The notes: a model not told the origin generated them from the letters alone. DNA of 36,410 bases from Gemmatimonadales bacterium (GCA_050733115.1 JBOHSC010000314.1:1-36410), one strand, 5' to 3'. Shown: positions 4,130-34,433, counted from the stretch's first letter. A program made the numbers and translations.

Positions 4130-4149
4130 CTGGAGCAGCAAGCTGCCGC

Positions 4150-5730
<1,581 letters not shown>

Positions 5731-12116: not shown

Positions 12117-12282
12117 ATCTCGTTTCCTCTAGTGGCGTCGGCACTTCCCGAGTCGGATGCGCGCTCTCCGTCGCTTTATCGTGACCAGGCGCGGACCACG
12201 CGAATGTCGAGCCAATACACAGGTCCGTCGCGCGCGCGCGACAGTCGCAATTCGTACTCCAGAACCAGGGAATCAATCTGCG

Positions 12283-17346: not shown

Positions 17347-19698
17347 ATGCTCCTTCCTCTGCTGCTCCTCCACCTCGGCGGCACCGACCCGGCCATGGTC
17401 TACGACGGCCGTGGCGGCAACCTGGACGTTCATCCGCCGCGTCTCGATGCCAGGGTTACGGTAGACGGTACGCTCGACGAGCCCGAGTGGGCCCGGGCGG
17501 CGATGCTCCGGGGCTTTTCCCAGTACTCGCCGATGGATGGAATCCCGGCCGTCGACTCGACCGAGGTGCTCGTCTGGTACTCGTCCGACGCGATCTACTT
17601 CGGCATTCGGGCGTTCGAAGCGCACGGCGAGGTGCACGCCACGCTGGCCGACCGCGACAAGATCTTCGCCGACGATTTCGTGCAGATCCTTCTCGGCACC
17701 TTCGACGACGGCCGCCAGGCGACGGTGCTGGCGGTGAACCCGTTCGGCGTACAGTCGGACGGAGCGCTGGTGGAAACCGGCTCGACAACCGGCAATGGCT
17801 TCAACAGTGCCGTGGTGCGCCGCGAAGTGGCCGATCTGAGTCCGGACTACGTTTACGAATCGAAGGGACGTCTCACCGGATACGGATATGAGGTGGAGGT
17901 GCGGGTTCCCTTCAAGAGCCTCCGCTTCCAGCCGAGGCAGGAGCAGCGCTGGGGCATCAACATCACGCGCACGGTGCAGCACTCCGGACAGGAAGACTCG
18001 TGGGCGCCGGCCAAGCGCGCGAGCGCATCGTTCCTGGCCCAGTCGGGCCACCTGGTCGGGCTCACCGACCTGCAACGCGGGCTCGTGCTCGACCTGAATC
18101 CGTCGCTCACCTCGAAAACGACCGGCACGGCCGGCTCGGCGGGGTGGGACTACAGCGGCGGAGCGCCGGAGCTCGGCGGCAGCGTACGTTGGGGCATCAC
18201 CAACAACCTCAACCTGAACGGGACGGCCAATCCCGACTTTTCCCAGGTCGAGTCGGATGCGGGGCAATTCCAGTTCGACCCGCGGGACGAGATCTTCTTC
18301 TCCGAGAAGCGGCCCTTCTTCCTCGACGGAAGCGAACAGTTCACGACGCCGAATCAGCTCATCTACACCCGGCGCATCGTGCAGCCGGTGGCCGCGGTCA
18401 AGCTTACCGGCAAGGGCTTCGGCACCGACATCGGGTTTCTCTCCGCGCTCGACGACCGCCAGGTGTCGGCAACGGGCGAAGACCACCCGTTCTACAATCT
18501 GCTCCGGCTCCAGCGTGATGTCGGATCGAGCTCGCGCCTCGGCCTGACCTACACCGACCGGGTGGACGGGAACAACTCGAATCGCGTCGGCGGCCTCGAT
18601 GGTCGCTTTGTCAGAGGGGTGTACACGGCGCAGTTTCAGGTCGCCGGCAGCAGGACCACCCAGACGGGAGTCACCACCACCGCGCCCCTCCTGTTCGGCC
18701 GCGTCATCGCCAGCGGCCGCACCTTCGGGTTTCGCACCAGCTTCAACGGATCGGACGCCAGGTTCCGTGCGCGCAGCGGCTTCTTCCCCCGGCCCGGCCT
18801 CTCGCGCATCAACTTCCAGCCTCGGGTGTCGTTCTACGGCAAGTCCGGCAGCCTGATGGAGAACCTGACCGTCGACGTGAATCTCGACGGCCTGTACCGG
18901 TACGATCAGTTCGCCAGGAGCGCGGGGATGCAGGAGGAGAAGGCGCACCTGAACGCCAATCTCATCATGTACGGAGGGTGGCACGTGGGCGCCTCGGTGC
19001 TGAATGAACACTTCGGATACCCATCGGAGGTGTACACCGACTATCGTCTCGAGCTGCCGCGCACTGATGGCACAGGCGTGGACACGGTGCCATTCGTGGG
19101 ACGCCAGAAGATTCCCAACCGGGACTACGTCCTCAGTCTCGACACTCCGGATTTCTCGCAGTTCTCCGGCAGCTTGTTTCTGCTCTGGGGTCACGACGAG
19201 AACTTCTTCGAGTGGGCGTCGGGAGATATTCTCTGGATCACGCTCGGCCTCGACTGGCGGCCGACCGACAAACTGCGCCTCAGCGGCAACTATCAGATGC
19301 AGTCGGTGAGCCGGCGAACCGACGGCAGTCTCGTTAACGTCAATCACATCCCTCGGCTCAAGATCGAGTACCAGGCGTCGCGTCCGATCTTCGTGCGGCT
19401 CGTCGGCGAGTACACCAGCGAGCGGCAAAGCGCACTGCGCGACGACACCCGCACCAACGCGCCGATTCTCATCTTCGATCCGGACGTCGGCGACTTCGTT
19501 CGCACCACGCCGTTCAAGCATCGGTCGTTTCGTGGCGATCTGCTCTTCTCATACCAGCCGACTCCGGGCACGGTCCTCTTCGCCGGCTACGGCAGCACGC
19601 TGCGCGATCCGGTCGACCCCACCGATCCGCTCCGCGCCGGGCTCCGCCGGTCGGAGGACGGGTTCTTCTTCAAGATGAGCTACCTCTTCCGGATGTAG
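17347..19698 (+). CDS. CBM9-like + DUF5916-type outer-membrane-associated protein
   Basis: The N-terminal VDGTLDEPEWARA...FSQYSPMDG...DDFVQILLGTFDDGRQATVLAVNPFGVQSDG pattern is typical of CBM9/DUF5916 proteins. A long beta-rich C-terminal part ends in an aromatic-rich tail (FFFKMSYLFRM). An in-frame TGA at 17326-17328 prevents upstream extension. Confidence 0.75.
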   Translation: MLLPLLLLHLGGTDPAMVYDGRGGNLDVHPPRLDARVTVDGTLDEPEWARAAMLRGFSQYSPMDGIPAVDSTEVLVWYSSDAIYFGIRAFEAHGEVHATLADRDKIFADDFVQILLGTFDDGRQATVLAVNPFGVQSDGALVETGSTTGNGFNSAVVRREVADLSPDYVYESKGRLTGYGYEVEVRVPFKSLRFQPRQEQRWGINITRTVQHSGQEDSWAPAKRASASFLAQSGHLVGLTDLQRGLVLDLNPSLTSKTTGTAGSAGWDYSGGAPELGGSVRWGITNNLNLNGTANPDFSQVESDAGQFQFDPRDEIFFSEKRPFFLDGSEQFTTPNQLIYTRRIVQPVAAVKLTGKGFGTDIGFLSALDDRQVSATGEDHPFYNLLRLQRDVGSSSRLGLTYTDRVDGNNSNRVGGLDGRFVRGVYTAQFQVAGSRTTQTGVTTTAPLLFGRVIASGRTFGFRTSFNGSDARFRARSGFFPRPGLSRINFQPRVSFYGKSGSLMENLTVDVNLDGLYRYDQFARSAGMQEEKAHLNANLIMYGGWHVGASVLNEHFGYPSEVYTDYRLELPRTDGTGVDTVPFVGRQKIPNRDYVLSLDTPDFSQFSGSLFLLWGHDENFFEWASGDILWITLGLDWRPTDKLRLSGNYQMQSVSRRTDGSLVNVNHIPRLKIEYQASRPIFVRLVGEYTSERQSALRDDTRTNAPILIFDPDVGDFVRTTPFKHRSFRGDLLFSYQPTPGTVLFAGYGSTLRDPVDPTDPLRAGLRRSEDGFFFKMSYLFRM

Positions 19699-20047: not shown

Positions 20048-20219
20048 CGCCTGCGCCCAACCATCGAGCGGCCCGGGCGGAGCACCACAAGACGGTCGAG
20101 CGTGCAGCGAGTCGCCCCCGCCGCCCCTGTGCGCCTCCCGCCACCTCGTGCATCGCCATTGGTGCACGGGCATGGACATTGCCCGCCAAACGTCTCGTCA
20201 CCCTCCCCTCGAGGCAGGC

Positions 20220-20801
20220 ATGAACCGACCGCTCTACGCCCTAGGCTGGAGCTATGTCGCCTTGTGCGGCCTGCTGCTGGCAGGTACGCGGCACCGGCCC
20301 CCGCGCTCGAGCGACGAGCCGCCGGCTCCGGCGCCGCCGTTTCGGGGTGAAGCATCCGAGTGGTTCGCCCAGGTCAAGCCGTTTTGCAACGCTGTGGAGG
20401 TGTCCGTTCGGCAGCAGCAGGCGCCGGCGCCGTCGACGGTGGACGGTGCGGGGTACAGCGCGGCCTGCTACGCCCTGGCGGGAAAGATCGATCAGGCTCG
20501 CTCGGCGATCGATGCGCTCGATCGTGGCGACCGTTCTCGCGCGGCGGGAATCGTCTTCGAGATCGGGCATCCGGTGGCCGATGCCGGGGACGACAAGTCG
20601 GCGGGCCCGATCATGCGGCTCGTGGTGGACTACCAACCCGACAACTACATGGCTCTCTACCATGCCGGAATGTCCGAGTACATCCTGGGAGAGGCCGACT
20701 TCGCGCGCGCCCATCTGAAGCAATTCATGAAGCTCTACCAGAACGAAGACGGCTGGCGGGCCAATGCGCGTGACGTGCTCGGGCGGCTCGGCGAAAAATG
20801 A
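20220..20801 (+). CDS. Small membrane-anchored hypothetical protein, translationally coupled to the downstream kinase
   Basis: The ATG at 20220 gives an N-terminal hydrophobic anchor (LYALGWSYVALCGLLLAG). The helical C-terminal part is possibly TPR-like (NYMALYHAGMSEYILGEADFARAHLKQFMKLY). The stop TGA at 20799-20801 overlaps the kinase ATG at 20798-20800. Confidence 0.6.
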   Translation: MNRPLYALGWSYVALCGLLLAGTRHRPPRSSDEPPAPAPPFRGEASEWFAQVKPFCNAVEVSVRQQQAPAPSTVDGAGYSAACYALAGKIDQARSAIDALDRGDRSRAAGIVFEIGHPVADAGDDKSAGPIMRLVVDYQPDNYMALYHAGMSEYILGEADFARAHLKQFMKLYQNEDGWRANARDVLGRLGEK

Positions 20802-22630
20802 GCGCCTCCCCGTTCCTCGATCCGGGCGCCGTTCTGGCCGGACGCTACGAGATCGTCCGCGAGGTCGGCCGCGGCGGGTACTCGGTGGTCTACCTCGCGC
20901 GCGATCGTACGGTCGGCACCGACGTGGCATTGAAGCTCCTGGTGCCTCCGCCTGCCGCGGCTCAGGTGGCGCGGGAGCGGATGCGGCGCGAGGTGCAGGC
21001 CGTGCGCGGGCTCTCGCACCCCAACATCGTCGCGGTGTTCGATTTTCTCGAGGATGGTCCCTGGAGCTTCATCGTCATGGAGTACGTCGCCGGCCCTGAC
21101 CTGCAGATGCGGGTCCGCGAGCGGGGCCCGCTCGACGTCGAGCAGACCGTGCGGGTGGGACGAGACATAGCGGCCGCGCTGACCATGGCGCACCGCCGGG
21201 GCGTTCTCCATCGCGATGTGAAGCCGCCCAATCTGCTGCTCGACCCCGATGGACGCACCCGGCTCACCGATTTCGGCTCCGCGCGGCTCGATGGACAGCT
21301 CGGTGTAACCGGCACAGGCGCTCTGGCGGGCACGCTCGCGTACACCTCGCCGGAGGTTCTCGCCGGGCGACGGGGTGATGCGCGGGCCGACGTATACGCT
21401 CTCGGGCTGACGCTCTACTTCGCGCTGACGGGTGACCTCCCCGAGCGCCCTTCGCCGCACCTGCCGCCCGTCCCATCCGCCGATGGATTCCGCCCGAGCC
21501 GCGCATCATCGAAAGTTCCCCAATGGCTCGACGACGTGATCGCACTGGCTACGGCCGCCGCCGCCGAGAACCGGTTCCCGACGGCGGTCGCGTTGAACGA
21601 AGCGCTCGCATCGCAGGCGCCGGTTCCTCACGCAGGGACGGCGAATGGCGCGCCCTGCATGCTGTGCGGCGGCCCCGACCCGCTCGCGCTCGGGATCTGT
21701 CCCGCCTGCGGTGGCGGCGCACCGGAGAGCGCCGATACCCTCGTCATCATGGAACGGGAACGTGATCCGGCGGCGCGGCGCGCCGCGGCGCTTCGACTCG
21801 CGGTGGTGATGCCCGATCTGAGTGATACCGATCGCGCCGCCGCGGCGCTCGGTCGGCGCCCACTCTTTCGAGTACCGTCGGTGAGCGCGCCCAGGCTGGT
21901 GGACGAGTTGAGGCATCGTGAGCTGAGCTCACGGGCGCTTCCGGCCGGCCGCGCGCTTGACCTGGTGCCGGCTTCCTATTGGGCACTCGTGGCGGTGGTG
22001 ATCGCCGCTGGCGGCGCCGCAGGGATGATCGCCGCACCTCCGCTACTCGCCACGACACCGCTCGTCGGAGTGCTGCTGGTGCTTGGAGCGCGACGCTCGG
22101 CCCGCACGCCACTCGTGCTGCCGCCGGCGCGGCTCCACGCCCTCGCGCCCGCGGTAGAGCGCGCGGTGGTGCAGACGCTGGCCGAGCTGTCGCCGGGAAC
22201 CGCACGGAACCTGCTCGCCGATCTGGTCAGGATGTGCTCCGCGCTGAGCGCGCGCCTCGAGCGCACCGGCGACGATCGCGGTCTCGGCCCTACGCTCGCC
22301 GAGCTGCTGCAGGCCGGCTGTAGCGCGGCGACCGATCTGGCGCAGCTCGACGAGAATCTGGGCCGTTTCGAGCGTCAGCAGGATCAGCTCGCGTCTCTGC
22401 CGGAAGGATGGCTCGACACACTCGGCCGCTCCGAGCGGACGCGTGATGCGCTGGTACAGCGCCTCCTCGAGGCGATGACGGTCGTGGGGCGCCTGCAGGG
22501 CCAGCAGGCGGCGCTCGCCGGTGAATCCGACGAGACGCTGGCGGAGCTCATCCAGGAGCTCCGGCGCGAGTCGGACGCGCAGGGCGCGGCCGCGCGGGAG
22601 ATGAAGGAGCTTCTGCCCGGCGCGGTCTGA
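20798..22630 (+). CDS. Hanks-type Ser/Thr protein kinase with a CxxC..CxxC zinc-ribbon, TM segments and a C-terminal helical domain
   Basis: G-loop GRGGYSVVY, VALK lysine, catalytic loop HRDVKPPNLL, DFGSA and TSPEVL. The zinc-ribbon-like CMLCGGPDPLALGICPACGG lies at 21656-21709. A hydrophobic stretch is YWALVAVVIAAGGAAGMIAAPPLLATTPLVGVLLVLGA. The ~190-residue Ala/Leu/Arg/Glu-rich tail matches no domain I recognise. Confidence 0.9.
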   Translation: MSASPFLDPGAVLAGRYEIVREVGRGGYSVVYLARDRTVGTDVALKLLVPPPAAAQVARERMRREVQAVRGLSHPNIVAVFDFLEDGPWSFIVMEYVAGPDLQMRVRERGPLDVEQTVRVGRDIAAALTMAHRRGVLHRDVKPPNLLLDPDGRTRLTDFGSARLDGQLGVTGTGALAGTLAYTSPEVLAGRRGDARADVYALGLTLYFALTGDLPERPSPHLPPVPSADGFRPSRASSKVPQWLDDVIALATAAAAENRFPTAVALNEALASQAPVPHAGTANGAPCMLCGGPDPLALGICPACGGGAPESADTLVIMERERDPAARRAAALRLAVVMPDLSDTDRAAAALGRRPLFRVPSVSAPRLVDELRHRELSSRALPAGRALDLVPASYWALVAVVIAAGGAAGMIAAPPLLATTPLVGVLLVLGARRSARTPLVLPPARLHALAPAVERAVVQTLAELSPGTARNLLADLVRMCSALSARLERTGDDRGLGPTLAELLQAGCSAATDLAQLDENLGRFERQQDQLASLPEGWLDTLGRSERTRDALVQRLLEAMTVVGRLQGQQAALAGESDETLAELIQELRRESDAQGAAAREMKELLPGAV

Positions 22631-22709: not shown

Positions 22710-22943
22710 GTCGTGGGATCGCCACAACGATCTCCCGATTTCAGCGTCTGCAGGACCCTGCATCGACCATCCTTACCCCTCCCTCAAGCAAGCATCCTTC
22801 CGCGTGTTGCGGCTGCTCCACCACACATCCAGCATCTTCTGCCACCAGCACCTGCGGCTGGCGTACCTCTTGCCCCTTACAGCAGTTGCACAACGGAGAC
22901 AATGGCGAGACTGCAATCCTCTGCAATGGGGCGACAGCGACCG

Positions 22944-24161
22944 ATGCGCGTCATGCTGTTGAACTACGAGTACCCTCCGTATGGCGGCGGCGCCGGTGTA
23001 GCCACCGAGGCGCTGGCGCGCACGCTCGCGTCCCGCGGCGTCACGGTGGACGTCGTGACCGCCGGTGACAAGACGGAGTGCCAGTCCGAGCTGCTCTGGG
23101 ACGGCGACGCGGCCGAAGAGGGGCTACTCAACGTTCACCGGGTGCGGTGCCGCCGCACGTCGGTGCACCAGGCGAGCATGTTCGACGCGGCCAGCTATCT
23201 CTTCGCCGCGCTGCCGGTGATCCGCGAGCTGCTCGAGGCGGAAGAGTACGATACGGTCCACGTCTTCTTCTCGCTTCCGACCGGCGCGCTCATCCCGTTG
23301 CTCAATCTCGGCAAGACGCCGGTGATCGTCTCCCTCAGGGGCTCCGACGTTCCGGGATACGACTCGCACAATCGCAACCTCGAGCGGGCGCACGCACTGT
23401 TGCGTCCCTTTACACGCTGGATCTGGCGCCGCGCCGACCGTGTAGTGCCGGTGTGCGAGAGCCTTGGCCAGATGGCGGCGCGCACCCTGCCGAGCCTGGA
23501 CTACACGGTGATTCCCAACGGTGTGGACCTCGCGCGCTTTCACCCTCCGGCGTCGCGGCGGAACCGGCGCTGCGGACCAGTCCGCTGCATTGCCGTGGCG
23601 CGACTGGTGGAGCGGAAGGGGCTCACCGACCTGATACGCGCCATCGGCCTGCTGGAGCGAGGAAGCTACGAGCTCGAGATCGTCGGCACCGGGCCGGACG
23701 AGCATGTGCTTCGCGAGCTGGTGGCTGGCCTCCGGCTCGACGGCTTCGTGAAGTTCAGCGGTTCGCTCGACCGTGCCACCGTCGCCCGCCGGTACCGTGA
23801 CGCGGATCTCTTCACTCTCGCCTCCGTCGAGGAGGCGTTCGGCAATGTGTTCGCCGAAGCGCTGGCCTGCGGCCTTCCCGTCGTGGGCAGTGCGGTGGGC
23901 GGCATCCCCGACCTCGTCCAGCATGGCCGCAACGGCCTGCTGGTCCCGCCTCGTGATCCGTTCGCGCTTGCCACCGCCATCCGGCACCTCGGAGAGAATC
24001 CCGCGCTTCGCGCCGAGATCGGCCGCCGCAATCGGGCCCAGGCGGAGGCGACTCTTTCCTGGGATCGGATCACTACCCGGTACCTGTCGCTCTACAACGG
24101 CCTCCGCCGCCGCACTCCAGCACGTTCCCGCCTCGCCGAGCTGCCCTCGAGCTCCTGGTGA
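22944..24161 (+). CDS. GT4-family (GT-B) glycosyltransferase
   Basis: MRVMLLNYEYPPYGGGAGVATEALARTL is a typical GT4 N terminus. The E-x7-E region is EEAFGNVFAEALACGLPVVGSAVGGIPDLV. Alternative in-frame ATGs lie at 22902 (GGAG 3 nt upstream) and 22926. The ORF-track start at 22680 is rejected. Confidence 0.9.
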   Translation: MRVMLLNYEYPPYGGGAGVATEALARTLASRGVTVDVVTAGDKTECQSELLWDGDAAEEGLLNVHRVRCRRTSVHQASMFDAASYLFAALPVIRELLEAEEYDTVHVFFSLPTGALIPLLNLGKTPVIVSLRGSDVPGYDSHNRNLERAHALLRPFTRWIWRRADRVVPVCESLGQMAARTLPSLDYTVIPNGVDLARFHPPASRRNRRCGPVRCIAVARLVERKGLTDLIRAIGLLERGSYELEIVGTGPDEHVLRELVAGLRLDGFVKFSGSLDRATVARRYRDADLFTLASVEEAFGNVFAEALACGLPVVGSAVGGIPDLVQHGRNGLLVPPRDPFALATAIRHLGENPALRAEIGRRNRAQAEATLSWDRITTRYLSLYNGLRRRTPARSRLAELPSSSW

Positions 24162-25459
24162 GCGCGACGCTCGGTTTCTGGCTCGCGGCGGATGGGTTTC
24201 AGCTGCTCCGGGCTCCCCGACTGGCGCCCGACGCGCTCCAGTCTCTCTCGCGCCGCCGGCTCGCCCGCCTGCTCGCGGCAGCCGCGAGGACGGAGTTCCA
24301 TCGAGAGCGGCTCGAAGCGATCGGCCTCGACTCGAGGAGTTCGCTGCTCCACCTCGATCCCGAGGGCGTGCTTGCCTCGCTCGCTCCGGTCGGCAAGGCG
24401 GAGCTTCGGGCGGCGGGAACAGGAATGCTGCGTGGCGGGCGGATTCGGCCGGAGTGGATGTCTTCGAGCTCTTCGGGCTCGACCGGCGAGCCGTTTCGCG
24501 TCTACTACGACACGCGCGCCTGGGCCACGCTCAAGCATCTCGTGAAGCTCCGCGCCAGGGCGGCGTGTGGGGTCCGGCCGACCGATCGCGTGGCGCTCCT
24601 CGACGCGATCCCGCCGAGGCAGCGGCAGGGATTCGTTCGCGGCAGCCGCGTTGCCCGGATCAGCGTGCTGCAGCCGGGCGCGGCGATGGCCGAACAACTC
24701 GCCGCCTTCCGGCCCGACGCCGTCTACGGTCTTCCCTCGGCGCTGCTCGAAGCGGCGGCGGCGCTGCGCGCGCAGGGCCGGCAGCTCGTCATCGGGCGGG
24801 TGTTCACCAGCGGGGAGCTTCTGCGGCCGGCCGTTCGCGAGGCAATCGCGGACGCGTTTCAGGCGCGGGTCTTCGACATCTACGGAAGCTCGGAGACGAA
24901 GGAGATCGCGTGGGAGTGCGCCGAGGGCGGCATGCACGTGAATGCCGACGTGATCCGCCTCGAGGTACTCGACGATGAGGGCCGGCCCCTCCCCGACGGC
25001 GTCGAGGGAAATCTGGTGGCCACCTCGCTCGTCAATCACGCGATGCCTCTGCTGCGCTACCGGCTCGGCGATCGGGGCAGCATGCGTTCACACGCCTGTC
25101 CCTGCGGGCGGGCCTTTCCGCTGCTCGGCGTCGTGACCGGTCGCGCGGTCGATGTCCTTGTGCTCTCCGACGGGCGGCGGGTATCACCCTACGCTCTCAC
25201 CTGCGCCCTCGAGCGGGAAGAGTCACTGCTGCGTTACCAGGTGAGCCAGCTCGATCCGGCACGCCTGCGGGTGCGAGCCATTGTGGAGCCCGGGGCGCAG
25301 CGCAGCGCCGTTACCGATCGGGTGCGGGCGCTGATGCGGGCGGAAGTCGCTCCTTTCCTCGAAACCGACGTCGAGTTCGTGGACCATCTTCCCACCGGAC
25401 CGCGAGCCAAGTTCAGTGTCGTCCAGCCGCTGGCGGTGCCGGCGCAATCCCTCGGTTGA
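24158..25459 (+). CDS. Adenylate-forming enzyme, phenylacetate-CoA ligase (PaaK) / coenzyme F390 synthetase / CapK-like family, copy 1
   Basis: The GTG start overlaps the GT4 stop (GTGA at 24158-24161). The phosphate-binding motif SSSSGSTGEPF is at 24461-24493. The ~430-residue length and the N-terminal RRLARLLAAAARTEFHRERL pattern are typical of the family. Confidence 0.85.
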   Translation: MSATLGFWLAADGFQLLRAPRLAPDALQSLSRRRLARLLAAAARTEFHRERLEAIGLDSRSSLLHLDPEGVLASLAPVGKAELRAAGTGMLRGGRIRPEWMSSSSSGSTGEPFRVYYDTRAWATLKHLVKLRARAACGVRPTDRVALLDAIPPRQRQGFVRGSRVARISVLQPGAAMAEQLAAFRPDAVYGLPSALLEAAAALRAQGRQLVIGRVFTSGELLRPAVREAIADAFQARVFDIYGSSETKEIAWECAEGGMHVNADVIRLEVLDDEGRPLPDGVEGNLVATSLVNHAMPLLRYRLGDRGSMRSHACPCGRAFPLLGVVTGRAVDVLVLSDGRRVSPYALTCALEREESLLRYQVSQLDPARLRVRAIVEPGAQRSAVTDRVRALMRAEVAPFLETDVEFVDHLPTGPRAKFSVVQPLAVPAQSLG

Positions 25460-25473
25460 GGCGATAGCTCACG

Positions 25474-26442
25474 ATGATCCAGATACCGTCCGGCCGCGCC
25501 TTCCCGCGTGATCACTCCGGCGGGCGAGGGCGCGCGCGTCCGTTGCCCCATCCGCTCTCGCCGTACGAGGATCTGGTCGTGAACTTCTGCCCGACCGGAA
25601 TGATCCCGACAAAGGCGATGACGCCCCATGTGCCGGTGTCTCCGTCGGAGGTGATCGACCAGTCGTGCTCGGCGCTCGAGCGGGGCGTGGCCATCGTCCA
25701 TCTGCACGCGCGCGAAGCCGACGGCTCCCCGACGTATCGCGCCGAGATCTACGAGGAGATGATCCTCGGCATCCGCGGACACTTTCCCGACGCGATCACC
25801 TGCGTGAGTTGCAGCGGCCGGAACTTCCCCGAGCTCGAGCGCCGGAGCGAGGTACTGGAGCTGACCGGCGCCGCGCGCCCCGACCTGGCCAGTCTCACGC
25901 TTACCACGCTCGACTTTCCGACGGGAACGAGCCAGAACGCCCCCGACATGGTCATCGCGCTCGCGGAGAAGATGGTGGCAAAGGGGATCAAGCCGGAGCT
26001 CGAGTGCTTCGACTACGGGATGATCAATGCCGCGAACATGCTGATCGGGAAAGGGATGCTCGGAGAGCCGCCGTACTATTTCAACCTGCTGCTCGGCTCG
26101 CGCTACTCCGTGCCGGCGACGGCGAAGCACCTGTCCGGGATGATCGACGACCTGCCCGACGATTCGGTCTGGTCGGCGGCGGGGATCGGACTCTTCCAGT
26201 TGCCGATGAACACACTCGCCATCGCGATGGGCGGCCACACCCGGGTGGGTCTCGAGGACAACATCTTCCACGGATTCGATCGGGGCGAGCTGGCCACCAA
26301 TCAGGGCCTGGTCGAGCGCGTCGCGGACTTGAGTGAAACCTTCGGGAGGAAGCTGGCGACCCCGGCGCGCGCCCGTGCGCTGCTCGGCGTGGCGCCCTCG
26401 GCCGCGGCGATCGACCGCGTCCCCACCGCGGGGGCGCGATGA
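25474..26442 (+). CDS. BKACE-family enzyme (3-keto-5-aminohexanoate cleavage enzyme-like, DUF849)
   Basis: TIM-barrel start VVNFCPTGMIPTK. Zn-ligand H-x-H in AIVHLHARE (25699-25707). GGHTRVGLEDNIF contains the conserved Glu (26254-26256). The ~35-residue N-terminal extension is uncertain. Confidence 0.85.
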   Translation: MIQIPSGRAFPRDHSGGRGRARPLPHPLSPYEDLVVNFCPTGMIPTKAMTPHVPVSPSEVIDQSCSALERGVAIVHLHAREADGSPTYRAEIYEEMILGIRGHFPDAITCVSCSGRNFPELERRSEVLELTGAARPDLASLTLTTLDFPTGTSQNAPDMVIALAEKMVAKGIKPELECFDYGMINAANMLIGKGMLGEPPYYFNLLLGSRYSVPATAKHLSGMIDDLPDDSVWSAAGIGLFQLPMNTLAIAMGGHTRVGLEDNIFHGFDRGELATNQGLVERVADLSETFGRKLATPARARALLGVAPSAAAIDRVPTAGAR

Positions 26443-27782
26443 TCATCCGTGGGCCGGACCTCCTCGGAACGGTCAGCGCCATTCAGCGGCACATACGCGC
26501 CGATCGCGCCCAGCTCCAGACGTTTCAGGACGCCAAACTGCGGCGACTGCTCGTGCATGCCTACGAGCACGTGCCCTACTACCGGAAGCTGTTCGACCGG
26601 CAACGGCTCCATCCGCGCCACATCCGCGGCACGATCGATCTCGAGCTCATTCCGATCACGACCAAACAGGATCTCCGTGACCTTCCCCCTTCCGAGATCG
26701 TGACGAAGGGGGTCGATCCCTGCTCCCTCGTGTCGGTGCGCACCAATGGCTCCACGGGAGAACCGTTCGTCGTCCGCCGGACGGGGGTCGAGCAGGGCTT
26801 TCACACGATGTTCCGCCAGCGCGCGTACGAAGCGTTCGGCCTTGGGTTGCGCGGCCGTATCGCCGCGATAAGCTATCCGCGCCCCCGCCACCCGAGGGAC
26901 ACCAAGGTGGTGGGCCGCTGGCTGAGCGCCATGGGGGTGCACCCGACGCTCCGGATCGACGGCCTCCAGGATCCCGAGGCGATCGCCGAGCAGCTCGAGG
27001 CGTTCCAGCCCGATCTCATCACCGCGCTACCGGGCATGCTGCACCGCGTGGCCGATCACCTCGTCGACTCGGGAAAGGGCCGTGTCCGCCCGCGAATCGT
27101 GGTAGTGGGAGGTGAGGTGTTGACGCCGCTGGTCCGGCGCCGCCTGATCGAGGCCTTCGGCGTGGCGCCGCTCCAGACCTACGCCAGCCACGAGTTCCAG
27201 CTGCTGGGGTGGGAGTGCCGCACCCTCGGCGGCATCCACACCTGCGACGACGGGGCGATCGTCGAGGTGTTGAACGAGGGACGTCGGGCGCTGCCCGGCG
27301 AGGAGGGAGAGGTGGTTGCCACCAACCTTCACGCCTATGCGATGCCGTTCATTCGCTACCGCCTCGCCGATCTGGTCACCCGTGGCGCCGAGACGTGCGC
27401 ATGCGGGCAACCCTTCTCCGTGATCGGCGCGATCCGGGGACGGATGATCGACTACTTCCCGCTGCCGAACGGCAGGGTCGTGCATCCGTACCAGATTCTC
27501 CAGAGCCTCCAGCCGGGCGACGATACCTGGATCCGTCAGTGTCAGCTACTGCAGGATCGCCCGGACCGGGTGATCATGAGCATCGTGGCCGCCGGTGCAC
27601 CTGCGCCGGAGCTCGAGCGCCGCATCGTTGGCTCGGTGCAGCCCCTGCTGGGACCGGGAGTCGAATTCCAGATCCGGATCGTGGACGAGATCCCGCTCGA
27701 AGCCGGCGGCAAGTTCCGTCACGCGCGCTCGCTGATGGCCTCGGACTACGAGGCGGCGCCCGCGATCGCGCTGAATGGTTAG
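26439..27782 (+). CDS. Adenylate-forming enzyme, PaaK / F390 synthetase / CapK-like family, copy 2
   Basis: ATGA overlap with the BKACE stop (26439-26442). Motif TNGSTGEPF lies at 26742-26768, starting at codon 102 as in copy 1. The N-terminal pattern is KLRRLLVHAYEHVPYYRKLF. Confidence 0.85.
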   Translation: MIIRGPDLLGTVSAIQRHIRADRAQLQTFQDAKLRRLLVHAYEHVPYYRKLFDRQRLHPRHIRGTIDLELIPITTKQDLRDLPPSEIVTKGVDPCSLVSVRTNGSTGEPFVVRRTGVEQGFHTMFRQRAYEAFGLGLRGRIAAISYPRPRHPRDTKVVGRWLSAMGVHPTLRIDGLQDPEAIAEQLEAFQPDLITALPGMLHRVADHLVDSGKGRVRPRIVVVGGEVLTPLVRRRLIEAFGVAPLQTYASHEFQLLGWECRTLGGIHTCDDGAIVEVLNEGRRALPGEEGEVVATNLHAYAMPFIRYRLADLVTRGAETCACGQPFSVIGAIRGRMIDYFPLPNGRVVHPYQILQSLQPGDDTWIRQCQLLQDRPDRVIMSIVAAGAPAPELERRIVGSVQPLLGPGVEFQIRIVDEIPLEAGGKFRHARSLMASDYEAAPAIALNG

Positions 27783-29088
27783 CCTCCTCGAGCGGCTCGA
27801 AGGGGGCACGGCTCCCTGGCTCTTCGTCCACAGTGTCGAGCGCGCTTCCGAGCGCGCCCTCGTGCTGGCGCGTCCTCAGGACATCGTCTGCGTCAGCGAC
27901 GAGGTCGAGCCGGCCTATCTCTCCTATCTCGCCGAGCTGGGGCTGGGCCCGGCCCCGGACCGGGTCGTGCCGATGTCGCGCTTCGGCGACCGGTCGCCGG
28001 GGCGAGCGCTCTGGGCCCGATTGGCGGAAAACACCGAAGCCCTGCGTGCGGTCGGGTCGCTCGTGCGCGAGGGTGGCCCCTCCCGGCTCCATCCATTCAT
28101 CGCCTCGCGCGGCTCTTTCGCTCTGGCCGCGGCACTCGAGATCGCCGCCGACACCGAGGTTCGCGTGGCCGGCGGAGACCCCGCGATCGTAGAATACGCC
28201 GACCAGAAGCACAACATTCGCGAACGCGCCATCGCCCTCGGCATTCCGGTGGCCGACGGCGAGGTGGTCGAGCTTGCGGTGGCGGGCGGGCGACGGAAGC
28301 GCGACTATGACGCACTGCGCCATGCCGTGGAGCGGAGGCTGGCCCAGACGGGGCGCGTGCTGGTACGGGGATCGCACGGCACCGGCGGGTCGGCGACGCA
28401 CATCGTGGGCACCGGCGGGACCGACGTCCACGGACTGGTGCGGAACCTCTCCGATCATGTCGAGAATCGGGTCTACCTGGTCGAGACGATGGTCGCGGCA
28501 ACGGTGTCTCCCAACGTGCAGCTCCACATCTCACCGGCCGGCGGGCCGATCACCTGCGTCGGCGTGACCGACCAGCGTTGGGAGCGCCGGCTGGTGAATG
28601 GAGGAAATCTCTTTCCATCGGCGTCCCACCTGACGGCCGCGATGGTGGAGTGGTCGTACCGGATGGCGGGGTGGCTGCAGGAGGCGGCATACTCCGGGCT
28701 GCTGGGACTCGACTTCGTCGAGTACGCCGATCCGGGCACCGGGGAACTCCGCGCCTTCCTCGCGGAGGTGAATCCCCGGGTGGCCGGCGACACTTATCCA
28801 TTGGCGCTCTTCGAGCGGCTCAACGCCGCCCAGCGGCGAGCCGGGCGTCCGGAGAGCGGCGCCTTCGTATCGGGCACCATCGAAACCCGGCCGCGCCGAT
28901 TCGCAGAATTCCACCGTGCCGCCGACCATCTTTTCTATTCACCCGCTACCGGGTGCGGAGTCGTGCCGCATCACGTGGGGTCGCTCGGCCGCGGAAAGTG
29001 CGGCGTAGTAGTCTTCGGGCCGACGCGAGACGCCGTACTGCGCTCATATGGGGAGCTGCAGAGCTGGTGCAGGCGGGAGGGACAATGA
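27775..29088 (+). CDS. ATP-grasp superfamily carboxylate-amine ligase with an N-terminal pre-ATP-grasp-like region
   Basis: It overlaps the previous gene by 8 nt (ATGGTTAG). ATP-grasp landmarks are DQKHNIRERAIALGIPVADGE, RVLVRGSHGTGGSATHIV, VYLVETMV and GLLGLDFVEY...FLAEVNPRVAG. Confidence 0.7.
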   Translation: MVSLLERLEGGTAPWLFVHSVERASERALVLARPQDIVCVSDEVEPAYLSYLAELGLGPAPDRVVPMSRFGDRSPGRALWARLAENTEALRAVGSLVREGGPSRLHPFIASRGSFALAAALEIAADTEVRVAGGDPAIVEYADQKHNIRERAIALGIPVADGEVVELAVAGGRRKRDYDALRHAVERRLAQTGRVLVRGSHGTGGSATHIVGTGGTDVHGLVRNLSDHVENRVYLVETMVAATVSPNVQLHISPAGGPITCVGVTDQRWERRLVNGGNLFPSASHLTAAMVEWSYRMAGWLQEAAYSGLLGLDFVEYADPGTGELRAFLAEVNPRVAGDTYPLALFERLNAAQRRAGRPESGAFVSGTIETRPRRFAEFHRAADHLFYSPATGCGVVPHHVGSLGRGKCGVVVFGPTRDAVLRSYGELQSWCRREGQ

Positions 29089-30104
29089 CTTCCGCGGTCA
29101 TGCCGCTCCCGGCACGGCGATCGCTGCTCGCTGCCGTCGAGGAGCGCTTTCTCGTGCGGAGCTACGCGTCGCCGAGAGCGGGGGCGTGGGTCGCGGTGCA
29201 CGACGCGCTGGCGTTCCCGTTCCAGATGCGTGGAGATATGCGTCGTTCGACGGTCCGCACCGACGAGGGAACACTGCGAGTGGTAGAAATCGGACGCGGC
29301 AAGCACACGGGGCCGTTCTGTGCCCGGCTCCTCGGGTCGCGAGCGCACGGTGCGGGCGACGGCGCGCGGCCGCTTTGGAGCCCGGCCGCGCTGGCCGACG
29401 TCGACGCCGATCTCGTCCTGGCGGAGATTCATCGCTGGATGGCACCCCGCTTCCGGCGCGCCGGGTGGCTGGTCGTGCCCGACTCGATAAGGTGGCATGG
29501 CGATCTCACGCGCTGCCCGCCCTCGCGCGCCACGCCGAGCCTCAAGGCCGATCTGAAAAAGGTGAGCCGGTATGGGTACACCCTGGAGTCCGCCGGCACC
29601 TCACAGGACTGGGCGGAGTTCTACGGCAGCATGGTGGTGCCACAGGCGCGCGTTCGTTTCGGGGAAGCAGCGTGGATTCCGAGTGAACGGCTGCGGAGGG
29701 AGCTGGCGGCGCGTGGCACACTCCACTTCATCCTTCGCGACGGAGCCCCGGTGGCGGGTATCTGCTCGGTGCGCACCGGCTCGACACTCTGGCTTCCGGT
29801 GATGGGGCTCCGGCAGAGCGATGCGAACCTGCTCAAGGAGGGTGTCTACTCCGCCGCCTTCTCGCTCCTGTTCGACTGGGCAGCCAGGCAGGGATGCACG
29901 CAGGTGGACGCCGGCCGCACGTCGGCGTTCACACTCGACGGCGTACATCGGTTCAAACGAAAATGGGGGCTCGAGCCCGTGGCCGATCCGCTGAGCCACC
30001 TGATTGCCGTACGCGCCGGCTCTACGGCGCTGCGCGCGTTCGCGCACCAGCCCGTCCTCGTCGACCGCGGGAGTGGGCTGGCCGCATTTCCGGAGGCCGA
30101 GTGA
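29085..30104 (+). CDS. GNAT-fold acyl/aminoacyl transferase, FemAB/CelD-like (Acetyltransf_6-type)
   Basis: ATGA overlap at 29085-29088. The C-terminal half (HFILRDGAPVAGICSV...LLKEGVYSAAFSLLFDWAARQGCTQVDAGRT...GVHRFKRKWGLEP) follows the FemAB/CelD-like pattern, including the ..FK.KWG.. signature. Confidence 0.65.
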   Translation: MTSAVMPLPARRSLLAAVEERFLVRSYASPRAGAWVAVHDALAFPFQMRGDMRRSTVRTDEGTLRVVEIGRGKHTGPFCARLLGSRAHGAGDGARPLWSPAALADVDADLVLAEIHRWMAPRFRRAGWLVVPDSIRWHGDLTRCPPSRATPSLKADLKKVSRYGYTLESAGTSQDWAEFYGSMVVPQARVRFGEAAWIPSERLRRELAARGTLHFILRDGAPVAGICSVRTGSTLWLPVMGLRQSDANLLKEGVYSAAFSLLFDWAARQGCTQVDAGRTSAFTLDGVHRFKRKWGLEPVADPLSHLIAVRAGSTALRAFAHQPVLVDRGSGLAAFPEAE

Positions 30105-30784
30105 GCGTCCGCAGCCGACTCCTGCGTTTTGCCGGCCACTGGCGCGGCTTTCCTGGCGAGGCACGACGTGCCTATCGGGTGGGCGGCATGAGCGAGCTAC
30201 GGCAGCTCGTTGCCGACCGGTCGGTGCATCTCCTCTTCCGCCGGGACCGCATGGTGGTGGTGGCGCAGGCACTCGACTCGGTGCGCGACGCCGCCACGCC
30301 TGAAGGGGTGACGATCACCAGCGGCACCCGAGAGGACATCGGCCTCCTCACTGAGCTGGCGAGCGCCCGCGACATCCAGCTCTTTCGCGGACGGCACGAC
30401 GCGGGCCGCACCTGTCTCCTTGCATGGCGTAACGGGCGGCCGATCGGATATACGTGGCTCAGTGAGCGGATGGGGCCGGACGTGACCGTATGCACGCTCC
30501 CACTGCCCCCCAACGCTGCCTACCTCTACGATCTCTTCGTCCTTCCCGCGGAGCGGAGCTCCGGCGTCGGCTCGGCGCTGGTGAGCGCCCGGCTCCGGCT
30601 GGCCCGCGATCGTGGATTCACCGAGGGGTGGCGGATGATCTCGGTCGGGAATCATGCGTCGTTCAGGACGGTCGAGAAGACCCGTGGCCCGGGGACGAGA
30701 GTCGTGGGCGAGATGCGGTATCTGAAGGTGCTCGACAGGATCTACCCCCGATTCACGCCATGCAGCACGACCGGGGCCCAGTGA
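30101..30784 (+). CDS. GNAT-family N-acetyltransferase
   Basis: GTG start in a GTGA overlap (30101-30104); an alternative ATG is at 30189. The acetyl-CoA binding motif A is YDLFVLPAERSSGVGSALVSARLRLARDRG (about 30533-30620). Confidence 0.75.
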   Translation: MSVRSRLLRFAGHWRGFPGEARRAYRVGGMSELRQLVADRSVHLLFRRDRMVVVAQALDSVRDAATPEGVTITSGTREDIGLLTELASARDIQLFRGRHDAGRTCLLAWRNGRPIGYTWLSERMGPDVTVCTLPLPPNAAYLYDLFVLPAERSSGVGSALVSARLRLARDRGFTEGWRMISVGNHASFRTVEKTRGPGTRVVGEMRYLKVLDRIYPRFTPCSTTGAQ

Positions 30785-31914
30785 CCGCGGGCGTGCTCGG
30801 TGCGGCCGACCGCCTGACCGGCGAGGAGTGGAACGCGCTCGCCCGGCGCGGCTTCTCCCTTCACCGGTGGCACGCGGCGGCAGAGGCGAGCGGGTGGCGA
30901 CCCCGCCACGTCGTGGTGCGCGACGGCCAATCGGTGCTGGCAATCGTGCCCGCATACCTCCTCGACGGCGGCGCCGCGCTCGACATTCATGATCGCTGGC
31001 TCGGACCGCTCGGCCCCGCAATGGCGGCAGCCGGCCTCCGTTTTCGACCGACGATCTCCGTGGGCGCGCCGTGCTCCACCACCAGCTCGTGGCTTGGCGA
31101 TCTCGAGGCGCTCCCCGAGACGGTGATCGAACAGGTCTTCGCGGCGCTGGAGGCTCAGGCGAGGGAGGACGGGGCACGCGCCGTGGTATGGCCGTTCGTG
31201 GATGAGCGGCACCAGCACCTTCGTGAGGTGGCACGCCGCGGGGGATATCTTGACTACTATGCGGGCTCGACCGCGCGGGTTCCGGTCGCATGGCCCTCGT
31301 TCGACGATTACCTGGCGAGCCGCTCGAAGAGTCTCCGCCGCACCGTCCGCGCCGAACTCAAGTGGCTGGACGAGCGTGCTATCCGCACTGCCATGACTCC
31401 CGACTTCCGGGCGCAGGCTCCCGCTATGGCGGCGCTGTACGCCTCCACCAGTGAAGATCACCGCGGCCGCGCGGCGGCCGTGCCCTCGATTCTTTTCACG
31501 CACCTCGCCGAGCAGCCCACCCCGGGGCTCTGGGGGCAGCTCACCTATCACGACGACCGACTCGTGGGTTCCAGCATCTCGGTCGCCGCCAGCGGCGTGA
31601 TGGAGGGAACGTTCGCGGCGTTCGCGCCGGGATTCCTGGCCGGGCCGGTATATCACAACGACCTGGTGTACGAGCCGCTGCGCGTGGCATGCGCCGAGGG
31701 GATGACGGCTCTCGATCTGGGGCCGACGGCGCTCTATCCCAAGGTGCTGCGAGGCGGCCGCTTGGTGCGCCGGCGCACCCTCGTCCGGGGAACCTCACTC
31801 CTCGTACAAGGGGCGCTGCGCATGCTCGGACCAGTGGTTGCGCGCCGGACCGAGTGGAAGGAGCGGCGCGCTCTCGAGGCGCTCGGCACACTGGAGACGC
31901 TGACCGACGCATGA
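30781..31914 (+). CDS. FemAB-like / DUF482-type GNAT-fold protein ('peptidoglycan biosynthesis/recognition' family)
   Basis: GTG at 30781 forms a GTGA overlap with the upstream stop; an in-frame ATG at 30760 is the alternative. The patterns EEWNALARRGFSLHRWHAAAEASGWRPRHVVV..., FDDYLASRSKSLRRTVRAELKWL and LDLGPTALYPKVLRGG resemble that family. The assignment is from memory. Confidence 0.6.
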   Translation: MTAGVLGAADRLTGEEWNALARRGFSLHRWHAAAEASGWRPRHVVVRDGQSVLAIVPAYLLDGGAALDIHDRWLGPLGPAMAAAGLRFRPTISVGAPCSTTSSWLGDLEALPETVIEQVFAALEAQAREDGARAVVWPFVDERHQHLREVARRGGYLDYYAGSTARVPVAWPSFDDYLASRSKSLRRTVRAELKWLDERAIRTAMTPDFRAQAPAMAALYASTSEDHRGRAAAVPSILFTHLAEQPTPGLWGQLTYHDDRLVGSSISVAASGVMEGTFAAFAPGFLAGPVYHNDLVYEPLRVACAEGMTALDLGPTALYPKVLRGGRLVRRRTLVRGTSLLVQGALRMLGPVVARRTEWKERRALEALGTLETLTDA

Positions 31915-33353
31915 CCAGCATCGATCTGTCGATCCCGGCGCCACGCCGGGCCAGCCTGCTCCAGCGGATTGCCGCCTATTCGGCGAGCCGCGGTGTCACC
32001 GAGGGGTTGCTCGGCCTGCGCGGCATTCTGCTCGCCACGGTGCTGGGCCCGGCCGGATTCGGTGCGTGGGCGCTCCTCCGGCTCTCCATGCGATACTCGA
32101 TGTTCGGCGCGCTTGGTGTCTTTCGCGGGCTCGAGCTGGAGTCGCTCGCCGCCCGCCGGCGCGACGAGCCGGGTGAGGGCGCTCCCGCCGGGGCGGCGCT
32201 GGGGTTCATTCTCGCGGAATCGGGGACGCTGGCGGGCATAGCGCTCGTCGCGTCGTTCGTAGTGCCCGATCCGTCGCATGCCATGGTCCTCAGAGGCTTC
32301 GCGGCGGCGGTGGTGTTTGAGCAGGCGTACACCTATGCCCTCGTCTGGACCCGGGTGCGGATGACGCTCCGCCGTTACGCTTCGCTCGAAATGGTCAACG
32401 CCGCGCTGCAACTCGTCTGCGCGGTCTCGCTGGCGGCGGTGTGGGGGCTTCCCGGGGCGTTCGGCGGGATGGCGCTGGCCAGCGCCCTGGCGCTGCTGCT
32501 CGCCGCGAGCTGGGTCGAGTTCCGGCCCGCGATTCGCATCGCGCCGCTGAGGCGGTTGCTCGGCGTGGGCATCCCGCTCACCGTCTCGATGCTCCTCGCC
32601 ACCTCCCTCTACACCGCCGACCGCTGGATCGTGGCCGCGTTCGGCGGTGCGACGCTGCTCGGCTACTACGCGCTTGCTGCCTCGGTGGCCGACGTCACCG
32701 GATCGTTCGCCTGGGTGGTGCGAACCGTCGTATTCCCCGATGTGTACGGCCACGCGCAGTCGTCGGGCGCGGTTGCGGCGCTCAATCGGCATTTCGACCG
32801 GGCCGTGCTCCCCTTTGCGCGACTCTATCCTCCGCTCCTCGGCGCGCTGGCTTGCCTCCTCGGTCCCGTGGTGGCGCTGGCAGTGCCGCAGTATCTCCCC
32901 GCCATCGCCCCTGCGAAGATCTTCCTCGTGAGTGGTGCCGCGGCAGGTCTCGTGAGCCTGGCCGCCGTCGGTGCGGTCGCGGCAGGCCGGCATCGCAGTC
33001 TGCCCTTTCTCTCGGCCGGCGGCCTGGTCGCGAGCGTCACCCTTTCACTCCTCGCGATCCGACTGGGCCGGGGTCTCGAGGCAGTGGCGGGGGCGGCGTT
33101 CACCGGCCAGGTCCTCTACGCGGCGGGGATTCTGTGGCTTACCTGCCGAGAGGGTCAGCGCACCGACACCGCCGCCTTCCTTCGGAGTGCGCTCCTGCCG
33201 CTCGGATGGTGCATGACGTCGGTGCTGCTGGTGGGCCGGCTCTTTCCCGGCAACGACCTCGCATCGGCGGCGCCTGCCTTTCTCGTCTACCTGGTGTTGA
33301 TCCTTCCGCTTGCGCCGGTAATCAGACGCGAGTGGGCGGCGGTCCGGAGGTAG
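31911..33353 (+). CDS. MOP-superfamily oligosaccharide flippase (Wzx-like polysaccharide biosynthesis protein)
   Basis: ATGA overlap at 31911-31914. It is a ~480-residue protein of a dozen or so hydrophobic helices. The N-terminal GLLGLRGILLATVLGPAGFGAWALL pattern is typical of Wzx/PST flippases. Confidence 0.8.
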   Translation: MTSIDLSIPAPRRASLLQRIAAYSASRGVTEGLLGLRGILLATVLGPAGFGAWALLRLSMRYSMFGALGVFRGLELESLAARRRDEPGEGAPAGAALGFILAESGTLAGIALVASFVVPDPSHAMVLRGFAAAVVFEQAYTYALVWTRVRMTLRRYASLEMVNAALQLVCAVSLAAVWGLPGAFGGMALASALALLLAASWVEFRPAIRIAPLRRLLGVGIPLTVSMLLATSLYTADRWIVAAFGGATLLGYYALAASVADVTGSFAWVVRTVVFPDVYGHAQSSGAVAALNRHFDRAVLPFARLYPPLLGALACLLGPVVALAVPQYLPAIAPAKIFLVSGAAAGLVSLAAVGAVAAGRHRSLPFLSAGGLVASVTLSLLAIRLGRGLEAVAGAAFTGQVLYAAGILWLTCREGQRTDTAAFLRSALLPLGWCMTSVLLVGRLFPGNDLASAAPAFLVYLVLILPLAPVIRREWAAVRR

Positions 33354-33356
33354 CCG

Positions 33357-34205: not shown

Positions 34206-34433
34206 GTTCAGTTCAGGCGACCCAGTGCGAGAAATGCCGATGCCGATATCTCACCCAGTGATGTCCCTTTGCCCTTGTAGCTGTCCTGTCCGCATGCGGA
34301 CCGGAGGGTAGGCGCAGCCGCACATTGACGTACCATGTTTTCCAGTCGATGGCCGCGTCCTCCTACCGGAGCTCGCGGCCGATTTCATCTCCAGTACTGA
34401 TGTTCCATTGCAAGCATGCCTGAGGAGGCTTCC

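Follow-up and report, generated by a model that had tools for sequence, protein, structure and literature searches.

The window analyzed here is a 36,410-nucleotide contig of 68% G+C from the genome of an uncultured soil Gemmatimonadales bacterium (GCA_050733115.1, JBOHSC010000314.1:1-36410). On its plus strand, two PaaK/CapK-like adenylate-forming ligases, LigA and LigB, lie on either side of a zinc enzyme of the BKACE (DUF849) family, an arrangement that an initial annotation of this DNA had read as a three-enzyme sub-module. We found instead that the three genes belong to a highly variable island of separable modules, probably driven by sigma-54, in one Gemmatimonadales genus, and that BKACE covaries with acyltransferases. 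The explanation we favor, and to which we give an even chance, is that BKACE would supply an acyl-coenzyme A (acyl-CoA) to transferases of the GNAT fold and that LigA and LigB would be VpsH/CapK-like amide ligases in a variable island for glycoconjugate tailoring. All of the parts fall into enzyme classes already known.

Orthologues of the window's BKACE were found at 66-91% identity in about 40 Gemmatimonadales species genomes, and within a 401-genome sample of the phylum they were restricted to the window's genus (10 of the 24 genomes sampled) and to one genome of a neighboring genus. Neighbors were compared across 43 BKACE-bearing copies of the island. Upstream of BKACE lay LigA in 31 copies, an extra ATP-grasp gene in 8, and the GT4 glycosyltransferase gene in 1; downstream lay LigB in 31, the FemAB-like transferase gene X29 in 6, a Pre-ATP-grasp ligase gene in 1, and the formyltransferase gene (Fmt) in 1. 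The exact LigA-BKACE-LigB sandwich occurred in 24 of the 43 copies, the window included, and the triad thus recurs in 23 other genomes, nearly all of them in one genus.

The island was always flanked by a DUF5916 gene on one side and a rhodanese gene on the other; these two genes were adjacent at one empty site (L092, in G137). The site in G031 held the promoter element and GT4 only, and GT4 was the sole island gene in L089; GT4 is therefore the base of the island. At the site in G175, GT4 was joined by an ATP-grasp ligase, its sole partner in L091, and this ligase, of the Pre-ATP-grasp type, was found in 26 related islands. In other versions LigA and BKACE were separated by an added ATP-grasp gene, or the island had a MurF-like ligase, a further type of GNAT, or multiple LigB copies; the flippase was missing from several versions and the formyltransferase from others. 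Moreover, PaaK-like, ATP-grasp, and Mur-type ligases replaced one another between genomes.

Co-occurrence was counted in one 61-genome sample of the genus. A LigA orthologue was present in 28 genomes and BKACE in 23; both were present in 22 and LigA alone in 6, and the single genome with BKACE alone was cut by a contig end. Intact GT4-LigA-ATP-grasp-LigB islands without BKACE were found at L093, L095, and L097 (G169, G440, and G426), and at L101 (G423) LigA directly abutted LigB with no BKACE between them. BKACE-less islands fell in at least three separate places on the LigA tree. Conversely, L009, L030-L032, and L035 had LigA and BKACE without LigB, L020 consisted of GT4, BKACE, and Fmt with no ligase, and the number of LigB copies in relatives ranged from 0 to 4, with four in L028. 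Since there are islands with both ligases and no BKACE, and islands with BKACE and no LigB, the parts are separable: the ligases presumably work without BKACE, and BKACE would not need LigB. Distant PaaK-like genes in the BKACE-less genomes G031, G057, G417, G424, and G430 were set aside, as their genomic positions are different and none of them has an island gene as a neighbor.

Some island copies departed from the usual order or were damaged. At L001:2-6708 the order was rearranged, with LigB and the ATP-grasp ligase upstream of GT4-LigA-BKACE-X29. On contigs from long-read MFD metagenome-assembled genomes (MAGs), several island genes of L010, L026, L041, and L069 appeared split or frameshifted, for example into two GT4 or LigB pieces, either because long-read MAG assembly introduced errors or because the islands are decaying. 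At L012:14941-20837 the island breaks off after a Mur-type ligase and is followed by fragments of unrelated genes (a ThiC-associated domain, a LysR piece, and split amidases), suggesting rearrangement or misassembly; L012 was therefore dropped as a case of a BKACE island without transferases.

Within the genus, BKACE tracked with transferase genes. X29 occurred in 33 islands that carry BKACE and in none of the eight versions of the site that lack it, and the BKACE loci without X29 were L014, L020, and the broken L012. L014 is colinear with L093 (G169:C3) at 90-94% DNA identity and has exactly two extra segments, one holding BKACE (3514-4407) and the other GNAT-1 (7126-7869), 2.7 kb apart. Both loci keep LigA, the ATP-grasp gene, LigB, the FemAB_like transferase gene (Fem), and the Wzx flippase gene. 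Fem was kept in the BKACE-less L093 and L101 alike. GNAT-1 weakly resembles aminoglycoside 6'-N-acetyltransferases, and X29 weakly matched TIGR03019; its only match in PDB searches was a weak, insignificant profile match to FemX (1XF8).

Outside the genus, BKACE again lay beside acyltransferases. Homologues at 42-51% identity in Bacteroidota, Balneolales, and other groups had a hexapeptide acyltransferase gene directly 3' at about 24 of the 30 loci compared, and a GT2 gene was often there too. In Aequorivita capsosiphonis the order was RmlB, RmlA, a DegT aminotransferase, BKACE, a sugar N-acetyltransferase of the NeuD/PglB/VioB type, and an ATP-grasp amino-acid ligase. In Algoriphagus, BKACE was flanked by two ATP-grasp genes, with GT2 and hexapeptide transferase genes, and in a Desulfobacterales MAG it lay beside genes for an Antibiotic_NAT (aminoglycoside-3-N-acetyltransferase-like) protein and a FemAB-like protein; this FemAB-like protein and X29 have nothing in common beyond the C-terminal family motif. 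BKACE was translationally coupled to a GNAT gene in a second Gemmatimonadales clade. Three unrelated folds of acyl-CoA-using N-acyltransferase therefore lie beside one BKACE clade, which makes acyl-CoA supply the best shared link. Moreover, the Bacteroidota BKACE sits inside amino-sugar N-acylation modules (RmlA/RmlB, DegT, PglD/VioB-type), between the aminotransferase and the N-acyltransferase, and this position suggests a dedicated acyl-CoA supply. We know of no described amino-sugar N-acylation module that includes BKACE. Compared with the N-acylation modules of O-antigen and capsule loci, the window's transferases are of the GNAT fold and not hexapeptide-repeat proteins, and the island is without nucleotide-sugar genes. 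The Aequorivita locus, from the cultured strain DSM 23843 (L063:3518-17275), is a dTDP-amino-sugar locus that also contains a sulfotransferase and a Stealth-family transferase.

These patterns speak to the closed module first proposed, in which LigA would make an acyl-CoA or activate a beta-keto acid, BKACE would carry out its cleavage or, in reverse, condense acyl-CoA with acetoacetate, and LigB would activate the resulting acid for transfer. Constant order and coupling are consistent with such a module, as the upstream neighbor of BKACE is LigA or an ATP-grasp ligase in 39 of the 43 copies and its downstream neighbor is LigB in 31 of them, and within the genus BKACE is hardly ever found without LigA. 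The BKACE reaction is also reversible in vitro, and promiscuous (PMC11961710). However, the LigA-LigB pair persists without BKACE in at least four genomes (G169, G440, G426, and G423), an ATP-grasp gene separates LigA from BKACE in eight copies, and the count of LigB genes varies from none to four. Moreover, the L014/L093 pair loses BKACE together with the GNAT gene and both ligases stay. Finally, the same BKACE clade with the same active-site signature has no PaaK-like neighbor in about 30 loci of other phyla; tblastn searches with LigA and LigB found no PaaK-like ligase near the 42-55% BKACE homologues outside the island. We conclude that a closed three-enzyme module is quite unlikely.

The identity of the middle enzyme was supported at the family level. 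Its product matched PF05853 at 261.8 bits against a cut-off of 24.8 and covered profile positions 2-273 of 274, as expected from the initial annotation, which had placed a BKACE gene between the ligases. The match to the Kce equivalog NF052387, at 240.9 bits, did not reach the cut-off of 382. In this family a His-x-His pair and a Glu bind zinc, and a Glu and an Asp are catalytic. Alignment with PDB 3NO5 and with Kce (2Y7D) placed H76, H78, E261, E177, and D262 of the window enzyme at Kce H46, H48, E230, E143, and D231, and all five residues were invariant across 66 members of the clade; the assignment of roles also draws on the flavophos preprint. The window enzyme thus shares with Kce (PDB 2Y7D-G) and the wider family the Pfam family, the fold, the zinc ligands, and the catalytic Glu and Asp. 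The two differ in that the window enzyme has Ile for Glu14, Phe for Tyr145, and Arg (R116) for Ala. The first two of these differences extend through the clade: the position of the Kce amine-binding Glu14 is Ile (I44) in 65 of 66 members, and that of Tyr145 is Phe (F179) in all 66. With S112, S114, G115, and R116, they form a signature seen across the 66 sequences. The shared catalytic residues together with this single signature suggest that the clade may have one common substrate, other than 3-keto-5-aminohexanoate. We conclude that the middle enzyme is clearly a BKACE family member but not Kce. At L036:765-2694, on a 2.9-kb contig, two tandem BKACE genes are 69% and 59% identical to that of the window.

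BKACE enzymes are known from lysine fermentation, from carnitine and aromatic catabolism, and from one phosphonate antibiotic, and Bastard et al. in 2014 reportedly divided the family into groups. Lysine fermentation or catabolism is the setting of Kce and its relatives, whereas the setting of the window enzyme would be anabolic glycan tailoring. In the literature searched, no link was found between BKACE, Kce, or DUF849 and glycan or polysaccharide biosynthesis. BKACE enzymes do occur in biosynthetic clusters, and one of them, BsfD, catalyzes a C-acetylation and a decarboxylation in which no CoA thioester arises (flavophos preprint). By analogy, the window enzyme might perform noncanonical chemistry and build an unusual keto acid that a ligase or transferase then attaches, and the Phe at the Kce Tyr145 position, invariant in the clade, is the residue found in BsfD. 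The same Phe, however, is present in 3NO5, 3FA5, and 3CHV, and pairwise alignment to 9ZSC indicated that the insertion of about 20 residues with Arg91, which follows strand beta-3 in BsfD, is missing from the window enzyme. Constant adjacency to acyl-CoA-dependent N-acyltransferases also fits a CoA-thioester product better. We therefore regard BsfD-like chemistry as improbable.

Both flanking enzymes matched Pfam AMP-binding, and their best NCBIfam models were the DVU_1553 family, PaaK, and F390-related models, in agreement with their initial description as PaaK-like paralogues. All scores were far below curated cut-offs: for PaaK, LigA and LigB reached 66.1 and 90.8 bits with TIGR02155 (cut-off 646.3) and 95.5 and 106.4 bits with NF041878 (cut-off 700); for coenzyme F390 synthetase (TIGR03335), 37.4 and 50.9 bits (cut-off 458.7); and for the F390-related TIGR02304, 44.2 and 51.2 bits (cut-off 251.9). 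The curated cut-offs of the haloarchaeal PaaK and FlxY models were likewise unreached by either ligase. Neither ligase belongs to PaaK, to F390 synthetase, or to any other curated family. Alignment with E. coli PaaK indicated that the core motifs of the ANL superfamily (P-loop, A5, A7 Asp, A8 hinge, and A10 Lys) are kept in both ligase clades, with A3, A5, A7, A8, and the A10 lysine conserved throughout the LigA clade, and that both clades conserve a C-x-C-G element with no counterpart in E. coli PaaK.

The motif GSTGEPF had been reported to start at codon 102 in both ligases. It is present in both, at codons 107-113 in LigA (24476-24496) and 104-110 in LigB (26748-26768), and the interval first given for LigA, 24461-24493, ended one codon short. 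The full P-loops read SSGSTGEPF in LigA (24470-24496) and NGSTGEPF in LigB (26745-26768), and the corresponding loop of E. coli PaaK is SSGTTGKPT, with Lys where the island ligases have Glu. SSGSTGEPF was identical in 34 of 34 LigA orthologues, and the P-loop varied across the LigB clade. Since GSTGEPF is the phosphate-binding loop of the family, its presence in both proteins reflects homology and is no separate coincidence.

That shared motif and a similar length are all that would favor a recent, redundant duplication as the origin of the two ligases. The proteins are 32% identical over 409 residues. When 67 ligases of the island were placed on a maximum-likelihood tree with E. coli PaaK as the outgroup, all upstream genes fell in a LigA clade (support 100/99, stem length 1.44), every member of which lies 5' of BKACE, and all downstream genes in a LigB clade (support 95/83); the two clades stand on long, well-supported stems across about 30 genomes. 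In a library of 1.84 billion representative proteins, 1,914 representative clusters matched LigB at an E-value of 1e-30 or better, and at least 150 of them scored 246 bits or more against LigB, where LigA scores about 147. Because LigB is nearer to these clusters than to LigA, the ligases would have been recruited separately. We conclude that LigA and LigB are separately recruited members of a large family and not local duplicates, and recent duplication is refuted by the alignment, the tree, and the cluster comparison.

Constraint differed between the clades. LigA had 166 columns that were at least 90% conserved and LigB 93, making LigA much the more constrained; 57 columns were conserved in both clades, and 15 of the 57 were fixed differently. 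As to the initial suggestion of different substrates or successive activations feeding or receiving the BKACE product, the old, distinct paralogues and the differing columns make different substrates plausible, and the link to BKACE did not hold. A side case of LigB expansion is L028:10931-16333, where four tandem, divergent LigB-type genes that are basal in the LigB clade follow BKACE.

The best solved relatives of LigA were AjiA1 (6WUQ), a Bacteroides PaaK-like protein, and the 6SIW ligase, and that of LigB was PaaK1 (2Y27), with E-values of 1e-20 to 1e-24. AjiA1 and the PaaK-like 6SIW ligase presumably join their substrates without CoA. PaaK1, AjiA1, and the 6SIW ligase have the same shortened ANL architecture of about 435 residues and the same core motifs as LigA and LigB, at about 25-30% identity. 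No paa or benzoxazole genes lie near the island ligases; their neighbors are GT4, BKACE, the ATP-grasp ligase, GNAT-fold transferases, Wzx, and Fmt. LigA and LigB are the only PaaK-like genes in this genome (80% complete), and a true PaaK was not found there.

If LigA and LigB were nevertheless true acyl-CoA ligases, they and BKACE could be three donors for the three GNAT-fold transferases of the window. In favor are membership of the PaaK family at the superfamily level, PaaK1 as the best solved relative of LigB, and the match of two ligases plus BKACE to X29, GNAT, and Fem in the window and about 12 relatives. The match does not extend further: L028 has five ligases plus BKACE for three transferases, parity also fails in L030, L032, L035, L040, L014, and L027, and L093 keeps both ligases with one transferase, Fem. 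Parity between ligases or thioester makers and GNAT-fold transferases was accordingly rejected as a rule, as it fits the window and fails in many islands. Moreover, every curated CoA-ligase model lies far above the LigA and LigB scores, and VpsH, the one PaaK-like protein from a glycan locus to have been studied genetically, adds an amino acid (PMC13463779). We consider true acyl-CoA ligases unlikely.

VpsH provides the closest likeness for the amide-ligase role. In Vibrio cholerae, the PaaK-like VpsH is needed for a glycine amide on a bactoprenyl-diphosphate-linked disaccharide of the Vibrio polysaccharide (VPS) (PMC13463779). The VPS locus combines its PaaK-like protein with glycosyltransferases and Wzx, as does the Gemmatimonadales island, and VpsH is genetically required for the glycine amide and dispensable for chain assembly, the role that we propose for LigA and LigB. 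The island differs from the VPS locus in being without uronic-acid genes, a polymerase, and a priming transferase, and in having two to five PaaK-like ligases plus ATP-grasp and Mur-type ligases. The mixture of stand-alone PGM1-type ATP-grasp and MurF-type ligases with PaaK-like ones, a likeness of context only, would fit stepwise amide formation without a ribosome or a nonribosomal peptide synthetase (NRPS). In the window, the downstream ATP-grasp gene is the only one of these stand-alone ligase genes to adjoin the triad, and a sequence search of the PDB found no match to its product.

The favored explanation builds on gene content, clades, covariation, and conservation of catalytic residues as observed; each chemical step, the nature of the acyl group and of its acceptor, and the sequence of events are inferred. 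GT4 would make a sugar-bearing base molecule. LigA, and then LigB or an alternative ligase, would add amine- or carboxylate-bearing units to the sugar-linked intermediate by amide bonds, each ligase with its own substrate; LigA would be the core enzyme, and LigB would belong to a set of interchangeable extension ligases that also includes two ATP-grasp types and the MurF-like ligase. BKACE would perform the zinc-dependent reaction of its family, converting a beta-keto acid and acetyl-CoA to an acyl-CoA and acetoacetate, and would not serve the ligases. GNAT-1, X29, or both would transfer this nonstandard acyl group to a free amine of the growing decoration. Fmt (formyl) and other transferases (acetyl) would cap further amines, and Wzx would flip the product. 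The near absence of BKACE without LigA in the genus fits BKACE and the transferases acting after LigA's step.

Several observations weigh against this explanation. VpsH is likened to LigA and LigB by locus context and PaaK-like type rather than by sequence comparison, and nothing relevant on CapK or F390 proteins with O-antigen was found in the literature searched. None of the island genes of the window and its relatives was recognized as encoding a uronic-acid-forming UDP-sugar dehydrogenase, and such an enzyme could be encoded elsewhere; the island is also without an aminotransferase or a deacetylase, so the carboxylate and amine acceptor cannot be named. FemAB-like enzymes usually use aminoacyl-tRNA and not acyl-CoA, which makes GNAT-1 a safer candidate than X29 for use of the BKACE product. 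The Phe at the Kce Tyr145 position is shared with BsfD, which catalyzes acetyl transfer and not cleavage. In the genus, BKACE occurs without LigA in one case (L020), and BKACE and X29 could possibly depend on LigA's product, or LigA and BKACE could be truly linked. Lastly, recurrence of the triad is largely shared descent, the sandwich copies coming from one genus and one neighboring genus.

A wider proposal, which we advance tentatively and at somewhat less than even probability, is that the BKACE clade that has Ile in place of Glu14, Phe in place of Tyr145, and an S-x-S-G-R loop, and that is present in at least four phyla, may have been recruited from catabolism to surface-glycan tailoring, where it would make one dedicated acyl-CoA for sugar N-acyltransferases of three folds. 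In Gemmatimonadales it would have been plugged into an island of free-standing PaaK-like, ATP-grasp, and Mur-type ligases, which would assemble a short chain of amide-linked units on a sugar independently of ribosome and NRPS. A conserved acyl-CoA supply for glycan N-acylation would, if true, add an anabolic function to the BKACE family and point to a novel acyl decoration of surface sugars across several bacterial phyla, including cultured strains of Algoriphagus, Aequorivita, and Gillisia. A. capsosiphonis DSM 23843 is a tractable organism in which to find the acyl group. The island itself offers natural "knock-in/knock-out" variants, such as L014 and L093, that allow a direct test of what each part does and that bear on the chemistry of CapK/VpsH-like proteins, a question left by the VPS work (PMC13463779).

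Ten tightly packed plus-strand genes span 22926-34205 (Table 1). GT4 and LigA overlap by GTGA (24158-24161), BKACE and LigB by ATGA (26439-26442), and LigB and the ATP-grasp ligase gene by 8 nucleotides. The BKACE-LigB junction is a 4-nucleotide overlap in 22 of 24 copies, and both this overlap and the ligase lengths of the initial annotation were confirmed. Overlapping or nearly overlapping starts and stops through the triad, here and in relatives, indicate an operon, and we conclude that LigA, BKACE, and LigB are predicted to be translationally coupled within a ten-gene operon. A GT4 start at 22680 was dropped on the basis of the gene call and the profile of third-codon-position G+C (GC3), which place it at 22926 or 22944. 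The formyltransferase matched the NCBIfam fmt and ArnA models below cut-off.

Table 1. Coordinates of the island genes, the promoter element, and the conserved flanks in the window
Feature	Coordinates	Strand	Support	Remark
DUF5916 gene	17347-19698	+		Conserved upstream flank of the island
Sigma-54-type -24/-12 element (TGGCGTACCTCTTGCC)	22859-22874	+		Precedes GT4
GT4 glycosyltransferase	22926-24161	+	Pfam Glycos_transf_1, Glyco_transf_4; GC3 profile; gene call	First gene of the operon
LigA, PaaK/CapK-like adenylate-forming ligase	24158-25459	+		433 aa; GTG start; core ligase of the island
BKACE (DUF849) zinc TIM-barrel enzyme	25474-26442	+	PF05853	322 aa; glycan-linked clade
LigB, second PaaK/CapK-like ligase	26439-27782	+		447 aa; accessory and variable
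ATP-grasp ligase with Pre-ATP-grasp (PGM1-type) N-domain	27775-29088	+	PF18604, 1.2e-10	Accessory
X29, Acetyltransf_6/FemAB-like GNAT-fold transferase	29085-30104	+	PF13480	
GNAT-1, Acetyltransf_1 N-acetyltransferase-like enzyme	30101-30784	+	PF00583	
Fem, FemAB_like and Acetyltransf_6 transferase	30781-31914	+	PF04339 (FemAB_like)	
Wzx/MOP-type flippase	31911-33353	+	Pfam Polysacc_synt	
Formyltransferase (Fmt/ArnA N-domain type)	33357-34205	+	PF00551	Last gene of the island
Rhodanese gene	34416-35327	+		Conserved downstream flank of the island

The sequence TGGC(G/T)T(A/G)CCTCTTGCC or a near variant was found 5' of GT4 in 28 of 31 related loci, and the minimal islands, L089 and L091, had the -24/-12 element as well. 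A scan of the operon for sigma-70 promoters and terminators gave background levels. We infer that the -24/-12 element probably acts as the operon promoter. Directly 5' of the element (20148-22630), a gene for a 217-residue protein with no Pfam match is coupled to one for a 610-residue Hanks-type Ser/Thr kinase, and this pair accompanied only some island versions (L002-L005, L007, L013, and L089).

Two genes further upstream are unrelated to the island. One encodes a fused trehalose-6-phosphate synthase/phosphatase of 734 residues (7967-10171), and the other a galactose-oxidase-like protein of 1037 residues with Big_1 and Kelch repeats (12157-15270).

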